20,976 bases of DNA from a virus (taxonomy: Duplodnaviria; Heunggongvirae; Uroviricota; Caudoviricetes). Below the pieces are notes generated by a model. The model searched no databases and was not told the DNA's origin. It worked only from the letters and a program-made list of their open reading frames with translations. Position numbers and translations under genes: made by a program. The stretch is taken from IMG/VR virus record IMGVR_UViG_2880378312_000001; one strand, written 5' to 3'. Within the stretch, counting starts at the first letter, position 1. Each line of letters starts with the position of its first letter. Of the stretch, positions 1-6,804 are shown one piece after another.

Positions 1-1314
1 ATGGAAAACAAATGTATTGAAAGTGAGCAAATCTTTTTTGCTAAGATGAACAGGTATAGTTTCAAACTGTCAGATAAGAAATGGCAACTGGATAAAGAAA
101 ACTGCGTATACCCTCATAAAGTTGTAGATAGAATGCCTACAAAAATGAAACTTAGCTACTTAAAAACATTGGCTTACTATGCGTCTGAATATAGTTCTTT
201 TTATATTCAAAGTATTAACAATCTATTTTATGAGTGGTTTGGTGCGATGACTATCGATACTATTGATGACAAAGCAATATATCAATTGAATGTTTATTTA
301 GGTTCAGAAAGAAACTACAAACTAAACTTAATTAAGGCTTTCATCATTAAATGGAAAAATCTCAATTACCCTGGGGTAGAAGCGACTGCCATTAGAATGC
401 TGGAGAAAATAAAAATCATTCCAAACCAAACAGGAGATGCAGTTAAAAGACGAGATCCAAATAAAGGACCTTTAACTGAAGCGGAATTCAATAACATCAT
501 TAACGCCGTTGGAAAATTTTATCATGAGAAGAAAATTCAATGCTTTTTGTATTGTTATATCCTTTTGCTGGCAATAACAGGAAGAAGGCCATTACAATTA
601 ATATCTCTAAAAGCTAAAGATCTCATTAAAAATGAGAGAGGGTGCTTTTTGAATGTACCAAAAGTAAAACAAAGAAAATGTTTCAGAAAAGAATTTAACA
701 TGGTTATGATAGAGCCGTTCTTATATGACAGCTTATCAATGCTAATTAATCAAAATCAGGCGTTTGTTGAAGATAAATTCAGTGTTGGGATTAGTAACTA
801 TAGAGGCGAATTACCAATCTTCATGAATTTAGATAAGATTACGGAAACAAAAAGGATTGAGGATTTTTTATATGATTTAACAACAGATTTTTTCCATATG
901 AAAAATTCAGTTATGTCAAAACTATTAAAACACTTTCCGTCAAAATTCGATGTTAGGTCAGAAAGGACTAACAGCTATATAGAACTTAATGCTAGAAGAT
1001 TCAGATATACGTTAGGAAGTCGACTGGCTAATGAAGGAGCCTCAATTGAGGTGATTGCTAAAGCGTTAGATCATAAATCAGTAAACTCTTCTATAATATA
1101 TATAAAAAATAATCCTGACAACGTTTATGACATCGATAAGAGACTAAGTGCGTTTTTTAACCCCTTATCTAATATACTTATGGGCATAGAGATTGAAGAA
1201 AACAAGAACTTTTTTATCAAGTTTGTTTCAGATGCATTTTTCTTATTGGAAGATACGAAAGAGGATTTGAAATGTTTAACGTGTAAAAAATTCAATCCCT
1301 GGAGAGCATTATGA
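1..1314 (+). CDS. Tyrosine-recombinase-fold protein A (Tn554 TnpA-like position); the window starts at its ATG so the true start may lie upstream
   Basis: Box I-like ITGRRPLQLISLKAKDL and Box II-like RRFRYTLGSRLANEGASIEVIAKALDHKSVNSSIIYI align gap-free to XerD [39 protein letters not shown] (from memory), with Arg, His and Tyr at catalytic positions. Stop overlaps next start (ATGA at 1311-1314). Strongly AT-rich. Confidence 0.6.
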   Translation: MENKCIESEQIFFAKMNRYSFKLSDKKWQLDKENCVYPHKVVDRMPTKMKLSYLKTLAYYASEYSSFYIQSINNLFYEWFGAMTIDTIDDKAIYQLNVYLGSERNYKLNLIKAFIIKWKNLNYPGVEATAIRMLEKIKIIPNQTGDAVKRRDPNKGPLTEAEFNNIINAVGKFYHEKKIQCFLYCYILLLAITGRRPLQLISLKAKDLIKNERGCFLNVPKVKQRKCFRKEFNMVMIEPFLYDSLSMLINQNQAFVEDKFSVGISNYRGELPIFMNLDKITETKRIEDFLYDLTTDFFHMKNSVMSKLLKHFPSKFDVRSERTNSYIELNARRFRYTLGSRLANEGASIEVIAKALDHKSVNSSIIYIKNNPDNVYDIDKRLSAFFNPLSNILMGIEIEENKNFFIKFVSDAFFLLEDTKEDLKCLTCKKFNPWRAL

Positions 1315-2956
1315 ACAATATATTTATTTTTGAACCAAGCAATAAAAACAACCCTCTCGATAATGTTATTAAGTTTATCGAGTTTTGTAAGAGTACTATT
1401 TCTAATAATAATTTAACAACTTCATGGGAAAGCAATAAATGGAAAGGTTTATATAGGTTTACTAAGTTTAACTCAAAAAACAACCTAAACAGCAAGGAGT
1501 GCTTAGATGATAGCTTTATTAATTTTGCTAAAGCATATATGTTGCATGTGCATTCATTCAATAAATCTAAGACGAAACACTCAACATTATCAATGTTGAA
1601 GATTGTCGAATTCGTTTTACTTAAAATCAATATGGAAGCTAATGTAAACTATTGCAACAATTCAATCTATGATGAATGCATAAGGATAGCCTCTGAAAAG
1701 TATTCTAAAGCACATGCATTTGCTATTGGGAAAGAACTTGAGAATTTGAGTTCATTTTTAAATGATAATAGGATGACTAACTCATTTTATTTATTTTGGG
1801 TAAATCCAATTAGGTATAGGATTACTCAGTCTTGGACTGGTTATGATTCTTCACTGGAAGGCCATTCTAGATTGCCTGATATCAAATCAGTTATTGCGAT
1901 TGCTGAGATTTTTTCAAAGCGGGATGAACAATTATCGTCAAGAGATATATTTACTACATCTGTGCTTGCTTTACTTATGTGTGCACCGAGTAGGATATCG
2001 GAAATTTTAGCTTTGCCAGCGGATTGTGAAATCACAGAATGTGATGGAAAGGGCATTCAAAGATACGGTTTAAGATTTTTTTCAGCAAAAGGGTATGAAG
2101 GCAATATAAAATGGATTCCAACTTTAATGATACCTGTAGCTAAAAAGGCTATTAGCAGATTAAAAGAATTATCAAGTCAAGCGAGGTTATTGGCTGCTGA
2201 AATTCAAAAGAATTACTCTAATTCAACGAAGGGAACCCTTAAAGAAAATATACCTCCTGATCTCTTTTGGTATGATAGAGAGAAGAAAATCAAATATTCT
2301 AATGCGCTTTGCTTGTTAACTGAAGGACAGTTAAATCAAAATAAAAAGGAAATGTCAGATAAATTATTCAGACCTACAACGAATTTTTTTAAAACTGATA
2401 TCATTGATTCTGATTATATAAAAGGGTATTTTAATGTTTTTAAAAGACATGGTTATATAAATGAAGATGGTAGCCCATATTTGCTAAGAACACATCAACT
2501 AAGGCATCTTCTCAACACATTTGCTCAAATAAATGGTATGGATGAAATGGTATGGATGAATTTAGTATTGCTCGCTGGTCTGGACGTAAGCTTATTTCTC
2601 AAAATGTTTCTTATGACCACAGATCGCATCTTCAAATGTCTAAAGCAATAAGAGAAAAAAAGTTATCAGTATGTGTTAATGAGCACAGAATAAAGGATAT
2701 TCCAGTAGTGGATCTTAATGAGTTTGACTCACTTAGTAGTGGTGCAGTACTTGTATCAAAACATGGCTACTGCAAGCACTCATATGCGTTTAAGCCGTGT
2801 GATAATTATCCAATTAAGAACTCTGGTTTAGATAACGAAACGATTTCAAATATCCACGATAAAATTTTAAAAAGAACACTGTATGATAAAAATGATGGGA
2901 ACATAAATGCTGATAAATGGTATGAATTCCATAAAAAAATAAAAAAAGGAGAATAA
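1311..2956 (+). pseudogene. Tyrosine-recombinase-fold protein B (Tn554 TnpB-like position), frameshifted by a 14-bp tandem duplication; repaired length about 543 aa
   Basis: ORFs 1311..2651 and 2552..2956 join into one frame if one copy of atggtatggatgaa (2533-2546 / 2547-2560) is removed. The repaired junction reads HQLRHLLNTFAQINGMDEFSIARWSGRKLISQNVSYDH, matching the HxLRH...G...Y..H catalytic spacing of tyrosine recombinases without gaps. Box I-like APSRISEILAL lies upstream. Confidence 0.6.
2533..2560 (+). repeat. Exact 14-bp tandem duplication (atggtatggatgaa x2) inside recombinase B
   Basis: Direct reading of the sequence; 14 is not a multiple of 3, so the frame shifts between Box II and the catalytic Tyr. 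Confidence 0.9.
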
Positions 2957-3355
2957 ATGGCTAAGCATATAAATGGTTATCATGAGAAGAAGATTGTAGA
3001 TGTTATTAACACATGGTCTATAGATGAAAAACTAACCTGGAATGCTTTGTGCGATAGGTTAGTCAGGGTTATTGGGAAAAGACCATCAAGACAATCCTTA
3101 AGTAGTCATGTAAGGATTGCGGAAAGCTTCAATGTGAAAAAAACCACAATCAAATCTGGTGTAATACACACTGTAAAACCTGCTAATTTAAAAGTGGCTT
3201 CTCAACGAATTAAAAGACTTGAAGCAGAAAATGAAGCTTTGAAGGCATTAAATGAACGCTATTTAGAGCAGTTCAAAGTATGGCTTTATAATGCTCACCT
3301 TAAACAAATAACGATTGAAGAACTTAATAATCCGTTACCTGCAAAATACCTTTAA
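2957..3355 (+). CDS. Small coiled-coil protein (132 aa), third gene of the recombinase operon (TnpC-like position)
   Basis: ATG sits directly after the stop of the upstream gene with AAAAAAGGAG RBS. Heptad-like segment IKRLEAENEALKALNERYLEQ. No recognisable catalytic motif. Confidence 0.5.
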   Translation: MAKHINGYHEKKIVDVINTWSIDEKLTWNALCDRLVRVIGKRPSRQSLSSHVRIAESFNVKKTTIKSGVIHTVKPANLKVASQRIKRLEAENEALKALNERYLEQFKVWLYNAHLKQITIEELNNPLPAKYL

Positions 3356-3452: not shown

Positions 3453-3866
3453 ATGGACAAAACAAATATTAACTTAATGGAAAGGTATCTTCTTCTGCTT
3501 GATCGATTCGTTGATAAACTCGCTGAATCAGGTTTCTCAGAGCAACGAATTATCGAACAATCATATCTTTTTTGTGCAGGATTTTATATCAAATACCAGA
3601 GTGGTATAGAAAAAATGACCTTCTCCAACAGGGAGGTTGTTTTAACCTTTCTGCTACTTTCATATTATAGTCATATAAATAAACTGGATGATGATTTGAT
3701 CAACAAAGAGCGTATGAAGCATGTATGTTCTTCATTGATTAACTTTATAGTCAGTAATGGTAGCCGAACAGAGAAAGTCTATGCTAATGAGAAAAGGAAA
3801 TATGAGGCTTCAACTCTAAAAAGAGAATTATCGAAAAAGGATAAAAGGAAAAGATATAGGTTGTAG
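3453..3866 (+). CDS. Hypothetical protein (137 aa) with a highly basic C-terminal tail; alternative upstream starts at 3396 and 3444
   Basis: Long ORF in the AT-rich block with AAGGA 11 nt upstream of ATG 3453. C-terminus KKDKRKRYRL suggests nucleic-acid binding. No recognised family. Confidence 0.4.
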   Translation: MDKTNINLMERYLLLLDRFVDKLAESGFSEQRIIEQSYLFCAGFYIKYQSGIEKMTFSNREVVLTFLLLSYYSHINKLDDDLINKERMKHVCSSLINFIVSNGSRTEKVYANEKRKYEASTLKRELSKKDKRKRYRL

Positions 3867-4261: not shown

Positions 4262-5500
<1,239 letters not shown>

Positions 5501-5575: not shown

Positions 5576-5971
5576 CTAAAAAATGCCAGTCTTCACGTTG
5601 CTTGTTCCAGCATTAAAGATGTATGTGCTGACTTTTTCGCCTTTGAAAGAAACTGTCAGAGATTTAGTTTGTGAGTCTGCGCCACCTGCAAGCAGTCCCA
5701 CAACGGGGATGAAAGAGGTTGCTTTGGACTGGCTGTTATACATAGTGTATGACCATTGTTCTTCACCATCGATCAAAGAACGGCTGTCAGGTTCACCGAA
5801 CGATGCTAACACGTCCTGTTTTGTAGTTTTGCCTTTAACAATTTTGGTTTTCACACTTTCCTGCGTCTCATTTTTCAATGACTGGTTGCCTACTGAAGAA
5901 CAACCTGCCAAGGTCAGAAAAACGAATCTATATGAGAGTTTTTTGTACCTGAGACTAAATCGCCCTCCCAA
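5576..5971 (-). CDS. Putative lipoprotein whose native 5' end is replaced by IS30-derived sequence; ORF-track start at 5971 is a TTG inside the IS30 remnant
   Basis: Lipobox FLTLAGC-SS then a hydrophilic mature region. Sequence above about 5927 belongs to IS30, so the first ~14 codons of the ORF are IS30-derived. Confidence 0.4.
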   Translation of the reverse strand: MGGRFSLRYKKLSYRFVFLTLAGCSSVGNQSLKNETQESVKTKIVKGKTTKQDVLASFGEPDSRSLIDGEEQWSYTMYNSQSKATSFIPVVGLLAGGADSQTKSLTVSFKGEKVSTYIFNAGTSNVKTGIF

Positions 5972-6669
5972 TGCCCTAGAGAGCGTCTGTTATCGATATT
6001 TCGGGAACGTTCGTGAATTGGTGTTCCGTTCACTATGTTAATCGTACCTCTTTCGCCTTTGCGGGTATGACGCCTGCCATGGCGAAGGCTATGCGACCGT
6101 CGCAGATGCTGTATATTCAGGTGGTGTAGCGCTTCACGGCTACGAAAGTACAGCGTTTTATAAATTGTCTCAGGTGATATTCGCAGCGTTTTTTGACGTG
6201 GTTTTGTTCGCCTTAACCATCCTGATATTTGCTCTGGAGACCATTTCATCTCCAGCTTTTCCAGAACAAGCTTTCGCAATGGTAAATTTTGATCCAGTAA
6301 GCACGGTTTTGGCCTTTTCGCCATTCTGTTGGCTCGGTTATTAGCATCAACAGCTTTGTAATAGCGTCTGCCCCGATTACGCTGAACTTCACGTGAGATC
6401 GTCGAAGGACTGCGATTCAGCGCAGTAGCTATCGCACGAATGCTCATTTTGGCTGACAAACCAGCTCGTATCTCCTCGCGCTCAGACAGTGTCAGGTGAG
6501 CTACAGCCCGCTTACGCTCATGGGGTTTTATGCCGCCAGTATCCCTTAACATAGTGAAGATCGTTCCGGGTTTTGAACCCAGGATATTCGCTATTTCACT
6601 GAAGCCTGTTCCGTTCTTCCATAGTTCAAAAACAGAGGCTTTTTCCTCTGCTGTAAATGTTCGTCTCAT
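5914..6669 (-). pseudogene. insI: IS30 transposase, C-terminally truncated (about 247 of 383 aa retained)
   Basis: N-terminal HTH region and start of the DDE domain recognised from memory; premature stop after junction-derived residues DSFF. Confidence 0.8.
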
Positions 6670-6731
6670 TCAAAAAACCTCCGCAACCCCATGTTTTCAC
6701 ATAACTGTTGCGTTGACCAATTGAATCTACA
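5927..6731 (-). mobile_element. IS30 remnant: left inverted repeat plus about the first 247 codons of the transposase; 3' third missing
   Basis: Reverse complement of 6717-6731 is TGTAGATTCAATTGG, the IS30 terminus as I recall it. Transposase ORF matches IS30 InsI from MRRTFTAEEKASVFELWKNG through DLVSGTKNSHI, then diverges (DSFF-stop). Confidence 0.8.
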
Positions 6732-6745
6732 GTGGTCTGTTTTAA

Positions 6746-6804
6746 TATTTCTATTTCTATTTCTATTTCTATTTCTATTTCTATTTCTATTTCTATTTCT
6801 ATTT
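6746..6804. repeat. Hexanucleotide microsatellite (TATTTC)x9 plus a partial unit
   Basis: Nine perfect units at 6746-6799 then tattt; begins 15 bp outside the IS30 terminus. The overlapping ORF 6691..6939 (poly-LF) is an artefact. Confidence 0.95.

Follow-up and report, generated by a model that had tools for sequence, protein, structure and literature searches.

The transposon Tn554 of Staphylococcus (genes tnpA, tnpB and tnpC) encodes two tyrosine recombinases and, after them, a protein of ~125 aa required for transposition; its TnpB is long, at 630 aa. By description, the gin operon resembles this arrangement in that a long tyrosine recombinase is followed by a small protein, but it comprises three recombinases instead of the two of Tn554. 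The ginABCD operon defines the GInts, “genomic islands with three integrases” (PMC5385486), and that paper reports that each of the four gin genes is individually essential for excision and integration in Pseudomonas and that GinD has low but significant identity to TnpC. Another group of elements, the SEs (PMC10214605), likewise possesses a four-gene recombination module that includes one atypical protein of the tyrosine-recombinase fold and a small auxiliary protein, the atypical protein being encoded second in the SEs and third in the gin operon. In the same study, Tfp/Srap and GinC/GinD were assigned to separate clusters, and O157:H7 genomes were found to be GInt-positive and SE-negative (PMC10214605). 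A PSI-BLAST survey seeded with GinC and GinD of P. stutzeri names O157:H7 gene pairs as ginC-ginD, these being ECs_3510/ECs_3509 in Sakai and WP_001059531/WP_001052051 in EC4115 (PMC10214605 Additional file 10); a literature search with the locus tags ECs3509-3512 returned nothing in main texts. The element type is already described, and the ginC frameshift considered below is already flagged in RefSeq.

The DNA analyzed here is a stretch of 20,976 nucleotides deposited as IMG/VR record IMGVR_UViG_2880378312_000001 (the window, in whose coordinates all positions are given). It belongs to the chromosome of E. coli O157:H7 and lies there between the genes ypjA and ssrA, corresponding in strain F8092B to the region between ileY/ypjA and ssrA. 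The first 4.2 kb of the window matches 388 complete E. coli chromosomes, with O157:H7 and O157:H7-like isolates from cattle heading the list at 100% identity. The left portion of a GInt-type island lies in the window, and all the evidence considered together makes it highly probable that a single 14-bp duplication broke ginC in a cattle-associated O157:H7 clade, within a GInt remnant that was already truncated. The genes of the island and its end in O157:H7 are as follows.

Ending 1 base upstream of the window, plus strand: ginA, tyrosine recombinase of 401 aa (PGAP WP_000540864.1)
1..1314, plus strand: ginB, second tyrosine recombinase, 437 aa, intact (PGAP WP_000428092.1)
1311..2956, plus strand: third operon gene, ginC, present as a pseudogene (PGAP “DNA-binding protein, frameshifted”)
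2957..3355, plus strand: ginD, small fourth gene, 132 aa, intact (WP_001052051.1)
3453..3866, plus strand: conserved gene of 137 aa after ginD (PGAP WP_000361847.1), with a homologue in 29/71 loci
4262..5500, plus strand: Pro-Glu repeat protein, island cargo common to O55:H7 and NWU_1
5576..5971, minus strand: BamE-domain lipoprotein gene, island cargo common to O55:H7 and NWU_1
5994..5995: island truncation point in the examined O157:H7 genomes, homology to O55:H7/NWU_1 stopping at 5994

The original prediction had placed the break in a second recombinase. With a 401-aa ginA just upstream of the window, the gene order ginA-ginB-ginC-ginD instead identifies the broken gene as ginC, the third recombinase-like gene, and the second recombinase, ginB, is intact and readily recognized (Pfam PF00589, E=2.9e-11; NCBIfam integrase_1, 320 bits). 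The intact ginC allele is 1632 nt long and encodes 543 aa (WP_001059531.1; Sakai ECs_3510); EC4115, Sakai and O55:H7 all carry the gene in intact form. The NCBIfam “gamma-mobile-trio” recombinase models yield marginal matches to ginA and ginB, far below the cut-off.

As in the Pseudomonas GInts described in PMC5385486, where three tyrosine-recombinase-like genes and a small fourth gene lie at the end of an island with variable cargo, the locus contains three consecutive tyrosine-recombinase-like genes and a small fourth gene on the same strand. Homology of its GinC and GinD to the Pseudomonas prototypes is indicated both by the published survey and by our own profile scan. A search with a profile of GinC homologues among contigs representing one genome per species produced 79 loci, 71 of which could be analyzed for gene order; the order ginA-ginB-ginC-ginD was found in 71/71 of these, Pseudomonas viridiflava and other Pseudomonas, the genus on which the definition of GInts rests, included, with a ginD homologue downstream of ginC in every case (71/71). 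The Pseudomonas operons retrieved by the profile show 30-31% identity in GinC and 37-41% in GinD. Compared with the Pseudomonas GInts, the window differs in that its ginC is frameshifted, so that the four gin genes are not all intact, and in that the island is cut by an IS30 remnant after ~2.6 kb of cargo: of the tripartite layout, the operon and this cargo are present, and the cut lies at 5994 relative to O55:H7. The att repeats, which in GInts are imperfect direct repeats of 10-11 nt, and the short AT-rich right end were also sought in the window island, and none was recognized.

In other E. coli, the same or a related gin cassette is embedded in a conserved backbone, in the order DUF6387, HTH, ginABCD, the 137-aa gene, a hypothetical gene and a relaxase, followed by defense cargo, in tRNA/tmRNA-linked islands; the available part of PMC5385486 makes no mention of this arrangement. 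In every context, the conserved block has its left edge at TTTGTAAAGTTT, ~280 bp upstream of ginA. This left-end motif has no consistent downstream partner, L006 being the one locus with a partner repeat and O157:H7 having none, and a search across family members for a conserved right end, attR or AT-rich end recognized none. H163 was considered as a candidate “empty site” and was rejected, as it carries a divergent gin cassette.

The duplication in ginC and the two reading frames that it creates are the following.

2533..2546, plus strand: first of the two 14-bp copies, ATGGTATGGATGAA; the ancestral sequence contains a single copy
2547..2560, plus strand: second copy of the unit, ATGGTATGGATGAA, with the frame shifting after ginC codon 411
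1311..2651, plus strand: 5' frame of the broken ginC, 446 aa, composed of 411 native residues and a 35-residue out-of-frame tail (P0123)
2552..2956, plus strand: 3' frame of the broken ginC, 134 aa, with its ATG inside the second repeat copy

That ATGGTATGGATGAA occurs twice in tandem at 2533..2560 was confirmed by direct reading, by Tandem Repeats Finder, which reports the same array (period 14, 2.1 copies, 100% matches), and by a shuffle control, in which 50 shuffles of the window contained zero exact tandem duplications with a unit of 12-30 bases (mean 0.0). Because AA stands on both sides of the unit, the period-14 register spans 2531..2560, that is, 2 bases further to the left. The two open reading frames, of 446 and 134 aa, exist as originally described, and deletion of one copy of ATGGTATGGATGAA restores the single 543-aa frame that had been proposed, with the junction ...QINGMDEFSIARWSGRK...SYDH.

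Mis-assembly can in principle generate short tandem duplications, and an artefact of assembly or sequencing would mean that the strain truly carries a single copy; the probability of this is negligible. A 46-nt query that spans the junction, and does not seed on single-copy DNA, matches at 100% identity in exactly 49 of 5426 complete E. coli genomes, which were produced by several laboratories, on different platforms, and originate from the USA and Japan. The junction recurs in further draft and Logan assemblies, and the duplication co-segregates with independent core SNPs. Since the query seeds only where both copies are present and is matched perfectly in 49 independent complete genomes, the duplication is real and not an artefact of assembly.

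The 446-aa 5' frame retains R228, K260/K267 and H395-x-x-R398-H399 and lacks W418, R421, Y430 and the Cys/His-rich C-terminal domain, all of which are carried by the 134-aa 3' frame. As the shift follows codon 411, the HxxR box is parted from the Tyr, which is where the original prediction had located the break. Given that all four gin genes are required in Pseudomonas, loss of GinC function should follow from the duplication, and gin-mediated recombination would be expected to cease. Homologues that end at the first stop, the case named against the original prediction, were looked for, and those from other genera are all full length. It is accordingly scarcely conceivable that the short form is a natural product whose homologues end near the first stop: all 120 non-partial homologues among the matches listed are 539-668 aa long, the 72 homologues extracted from genomes keep W418, R421, Y430, C483 and C492 past the break, and nothing was found in favor of such a form.

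The expectation that automated pipelines would call two genes holds for some pipelines only. PGAP annotates one frameshifted pseudogene in 6/6 carriers, whereas other pipelines split the gene: the exact 134-aa fragment is found on 83 further public contigs, deposited separately as “hypothetical protein” (EFL1483301.1, GAB5110858.1 and others), and the exact 446-aa fragment is found on 23 further public contigs and is present in Logan gene calls.

Among complete E. coli genomes, 347 possess the gene, and the 49 genomes with the duplication, out of ~330 complete genomes of the O157:H7 type, are without exception (49/49) O157:H7 or O157:H7-like, mostly from cattle or beef; one carrier, FRIK2533, has been classed in the bovine-biased lineage II (PMC6408774). 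Most O157:H7 genomes match ginC over 1632 bp, not 1646 bp, and therefore hold one copy of the unit. A single copy is found in Sakai (1632 nt), EC4115, UK strain 472, AUSMDU00002545 and O55:H7 TB182A, and also, at 93-98% identity, in non-O157 strains including 1283 and NWU_1; the alignment with homologous elements that the original prediction had proposed as a check thus finds Sakai, EC4115, O55:H7 and the non-O157 relatives all single-copy. The relationships of the carriers were assessed from five carriers for the local region and from two for the core flank. In the neighboring core genome (45.6 kb), the carriers FRIK944 and F8092B have four derived SNPs in common, for which the ancestral state is found in 472, EC4115, Sakai and O55:H7, the outgroup, with zero conflicting sites. 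Within a 40-kb region, derived alleles are common to four of the five carriers, FRIK944 being basal. The compared carriers form one clade, and the duplication therefore arose once. The description of the break as a recent and clean mutation is borne out in this form, as one recent, microhomology-flanked duplication confined to one O157:H7 clade. A co-segregating frameshift in ypjA was considered as an additional marker of the clade and rejected, as it lies in a G7/G8 homopolymer and O55:H7 also has G7.

A perfect tandem duplication can be removed precisely by slippage, and the downstream fragment is an intact ORF that starts with an ATG in the second copy and carries W418, R421 and Y430. The two states could thus be imagined as a reversible switch of GinC and excision, or the two fragments as cooperating parts of a split recombinase, one of them providing the Tyr in trans. 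For the latter, Flp and some other tyrosine recombinases, which donate their Tyr in trans, offer a precedent. Even jointly, these two possibilities are very improbable. The 14-mer occurs in one or two copies and in no other number, while a pair of hexanucleotide VNTRs in the window, truly slippage-prone tracts, vary among the 11 genomes compared, which argues against a hypermutable switch; the two-copy state follows the clade backed by the four core SNPs; and the element is truncated regardless. Inspection of the sequence upstream of the ATG at 2552 revealed no obvious Shine-Dalgarno-like sequence. A single, clonally inherited inactivation of ginC is the preferred reading.

For the catalytic domain of GinC, the predicted fold is that of tyrosine recombinases, on a structure modelled from the intact homologue P0001, 95% identical, in place of the repaired GinC; confidence in this model is low near residues 400-460. 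Conservation was assessed first in 26 homologues and then in 72, down to ~28% identity, the 72 representing Gamma- and Betaproteobacteria as well as MAGs with an assignment to Myxococcota or Acidobacteriota. Seven residues, R228, K260, R398, H399, W418, R421 and Y430, are invariant in 72/72 homologues, H395 is kept in 70/72, and near-invariance extends to C483, H485 and C492, a Cys/His cluster at the C-terminal end. The codons of the candidate active-site residues that flank the break, or lie upstream of it, are located as follows.

1992..1994, plus strand: codon of R228, the box I Arg, in APSRISEIL, a motif typical of box I; aligns to the box I Arg of GinA with a weak hhalign E-value
2493..2507, plus strand: codons of box II, H395-Q-L-R398-H399, upstream of the duplication; R398 aligns to Arg-II of GinB
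2612..2614, plus strand: codon of Y430, the putative nucleophile, here out of the upstream frame; aligns to the nucleophile Tyr of GinB

These assignments derive from profile-profile alignment with the GinA and GinB families from the same loci, in which R228 corresponds to the box I Arg of GinA at a weak E-value of 0.047, and R398 and Y430 correspond to Arg-II and the nucleophile Tyr of GinB at a weak E-value of 0.006. The hhalign E-values of GinC against GinA and GinB are thus about 0.006-0.05, and the expected register was recovered only with family alignments and not with a single GinB sequence. The distance from R398 to Y430 is 32 residues, equal to the Arg-to-Tyr distance of GinB in the window, and the spacing puts R421, not W418, at the place where a His or Trp is usual, nine residues ahead of the Tyr. 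The ancestral ginC allele thereby offers a residue for each position of the recombinase set (R, K, HxxR, H/W, Y). At the level of sequence, GinC has no match in the PDB, and PF00589 (Phage_integrase) gives no match to the repaired GinC at E<=0.1, short of the curated threshold; only 2/26 members of the GinC family reach E=0.01 with this profile.

The complete invariance of the seven residues across the 72 homologues supports a putative catalytic role. The chances seem to us evenly divided between GinC acting as a catalytically active tyrosine recombinase and the protein being the non-catalytic, DNA-binding subunit of recombinase fold described in the 2023 SE paper. The latter states that GinC is without the RHRY motif (PMC10214605), and the Pseudomonas GInt paper that the first Arg of GinC is missing (PMC5385486). 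The invariant set of residues conflicts with both statements. Should GinC be catalytic, the duplication allele would be a case in which nature has parted the HxxR half of the active site from the tail that bears the Tyr; the catalytic reading concerns the GinC family and not the duplication, and the residue set bears on the workings of three-recombinase elements.

The original prediction also held the element to be probably immobilized by the break. Immobility appears true of the element, but its cause is very likely not the duplication, since the truncation at 5994 is shared by O157:H7 genomes in which ginC is intact. In O55:H7 TB182A, which represents the progenitor lineage, the island occupies the same site and is 99.8-100% identical up to window position 5994, beyond which there follow a hypothetical gene and genes for a MOB relaxase, an ABC-three-component system and Hxs. 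In all examined O157:H7 genomes (Sakai, EC4115, 472, AUSMDU00002545 and the carriers), an IS30 remnant stands at 5994, followed by debris of a lambdoid prophage (Sp17). As every examined O157:H7 genome is truncated in this way, the truncation predates the diversification of O157:H7 and hence the duplication. The Sakai annotation, in which the gin genes form part of the lambdoid prophage Sp17, was considered and rejected: the module occurs in non-phage islands with relaxase and defense genes (O55:H7, 1283, NWU_1, L1PEag1, YZLc23-1 and EcE.ESBL.COL), and in O157:H7 the phage genes start only after the IS30 remnant.

An element that remained mobile until the duplication, the latter being the immobilizing mutation, is an unlikely but arguable alternative. 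Each of the four gin genes is essential in Pseudomonas, as PMC5385486 reports; carriers and non-carriers share identical, intact copies of ginA, ginB and ginD; the conserved block has kept its left junction; and, no right end of the family having been recognized, a short element ending before 5994 could exist. Set against this, the examined O157:H7 genomes are without everything that O55:H7 and the full-length relatives bear to the right of 5994, and the segment 3866..5994 is confined to O157, O55 and NWU_1 and is not matched in three further members of the family, so that no conserved right end is evident there. Moreover, no excision of the Sp17 region was seen in Sakai, where ginC is intact (PMC2669165; restated in PMC5359411), in an assay that addressed the whole of Sp17 and not the gin element. 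The duplication is very likely not the immobilizing event but a change in an island that was already truncated. That the O157:H7 copy was already without a usable right end when the duplication arose is likely rather than certain, since the attR of the GInt family was sought and not recognized.

The history that would best accommodate these observations begins with an O55:H7-type ancestor carrying a full GInt island, which would have moved by means of its ginABCD operon. A truncation associated with IS30, at 5994, would then have removed the right-hand part, including the relaxase and cargo, before O157:H7 diversified. Later, one event of slippage or microhomology-mediated duplication would have doubled the 14 bp in ginC between AA..AA flanks. 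Such a mechanism is probable, as the 2-bp AA microhomology at the flanks of the unit fits slipped-strand or microhomology-mediated tandem duplication. A 14-bp unit with 2 bp of flanking microhomology is within the range for such duplications. The resulting shift after codon 411 would have left the box I Arg, the Lys and HxxR in place and removed W418/R421, Y430 and the Cys/His domain, and the duplicated allele would subsequently have been inherited clonally. The duplication was presumably neutral to selection, because the right-hand part was already gone and the island was unable to excise as a unit.

Other lineage-specific slippage pseudogenes of O157:H7 are likewise clean, microhomology-flanked and clonal frameshifts in decaying mobile elements, and the present case is in no way unusual among them. 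The duplication can be regarded as having come late in the decay of this already disabled island; it reveals no new biology, and its practical value is modest: it is a clean, binary and PCR-typable marker, possibly useful, for one cattle-associated O157:H7 clade. The “integrases” of Sakai Sp17 are ginABC of a truncated GInt island derived from an O55:H7 ancestor, which corrects the reading of this region.

A second frameshift allele of ginC (455 aa, P0124; A7 to A6 at 2655..2661) was considered as a repeated inactivation of the gene and rejected: it is found in draft assemblies only and in 0/344 complete genomes with this stretch, and may therefore be a homopolymer sequencing error. The ginC of the window's own strain group has also acquired the substitution K145N.

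Sequence comparison of GinC, the product of the third gene of the four-gene gin operon, was performed across 72 homologues encoded in 71 gin operons (loci L017-L095), a set that comprises Gamma- and Betaproteobacteria along with metagenome-assembled genomes assigned to Myxococcota and Acidobacteriota. Seven residues, R228, K260, R398, H399, W418, R421 and Y430, are 100% invariant in this set, and the position usually occupied by His or Trp, 9 residues before the Tyr, corresponds to R421 in GinC rather than to W418. The codons for most of these residues map to the window as follows.

1992..1994, ginC R228 codon
2493..2507, ginC H395-R398-H399 codons
2576..2587, ginC W418-R421 codons
2612..2614, ginC Y430 codon

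GinC has been described as a protein without the RHRY motif or the catalytic Tyr (PMC10214605) and as a protein without the first Arg (PMC5385486). The invariance of these residues in 72 of 72 homologues contradicts both descriptions.

In addition to the 14-bp tandem duplication, the ginC gene of the window carries a K145N substitution (AAA to AAT at window 1745, codon 145), which, among the compared genomes, is common only to the strain 113 group; this is an additional change within a gene already broken by the duplication. A 455-aa ginC allele, P0124, in which an A7 run at window 2655..2661 is shortened to A6, was considered as a second natural frameshift. This origin is disfavoured by its confinement to 21 draft contigs (e.g., strain DEC3F) and its absence from all 344 complete genomes, so that a sequencing error in the homopolymer is the probable source of the allele.

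At the same chromosomal site, the strain EcE.ESBL.COL contains a strongly divergent gin cassette that encodes a 628-aa GinC (16158..21431 in its locus, L007, versus 16471..21397 in L001, the locus that includes the off-window flank). The flanks of this cassette are conserved on both sides, with the DUF6387 and HTH genes upstream, and a 137-aa gene, a hypothetical gene and the relaxase gene downstream; thus, the gin operon behaves as a swappable module in a conserved island backbone. On the left, the conserved block starts in every context examined with TTTGTAAAGTTT, located off-window at L001 16515, about 280 bp upstream of ginA, and a near-copy, TTTGTTAAGTTT, lies just ahead of the ginA start in O157:H7 and O55:H7 (L001 16773, about 21 bp upstream). 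Both could be recombinase-binding or promoter elements of the left end.

In the Sakai annotation, the gin module (ECs_3509-3514, within locus L012, NC_002695.2 3476099..3500291) is spanned by "prophage Sp17". Rather than phage integrases, the Sp17 "integrases" ECs_3511 and ECs_3512 are ginB and ginA, respectively, from the remnant of a non-phage island.

The island is truncated in the O157:H7 genomes examined.

5994/5995, truncation point
about 5995..6735, IS30 remnant

Past 5994, the ancestor-like O55:H7 strain TB182A continues with a hypothetical gene and relaxase, ABC-3C and hxs genes; the O157:H7 genomes continue with the IS30 fragment and lambdoid prophage remnants, and at the truncation point the BamE-domain lipoprotein gene has had its native 5' end replaced.

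Two perfect hexanucleotide arrays are present in the window. The (GCCAGA)n array (20.7 copies, 5281..5404), which lies inside the ORF 4262..5500 and encodes a Pro-Glu repeat, varies in length between 41 and 317 nt in a comparison of 11 O157:H7 and O55:H7 genomes and is therefore a hypervariable in-frame VNTR. The (TATTTC)n array (9.8 copies, 6746..6804), between the IS30 remnant and a phage HNH endonuclease gene, measures 54-78 nt and differs between O157:H7 strains.

The ypjA autotransporter gene upstream of the window (L001 10302..14887) contains a poly-G tract (position 12771 of locus L016) that is G7, and frameshifted, in all 5 duplication carriers and O55:H7, and G8, and intact, in Sakai, EC4115, 472 and AUSMDU00002545; either phase variation of the homopolymer or retention of the ancestral state could account for this pattern. 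About 40 kb to the left of the window's locus (L096-L101), norV is 1440 nt long in both carriers, 472, EC4115 and O55:H7, and 1236 nt long in Sakai, the latter length matching a norV deletion known from some O157:H7 strains.
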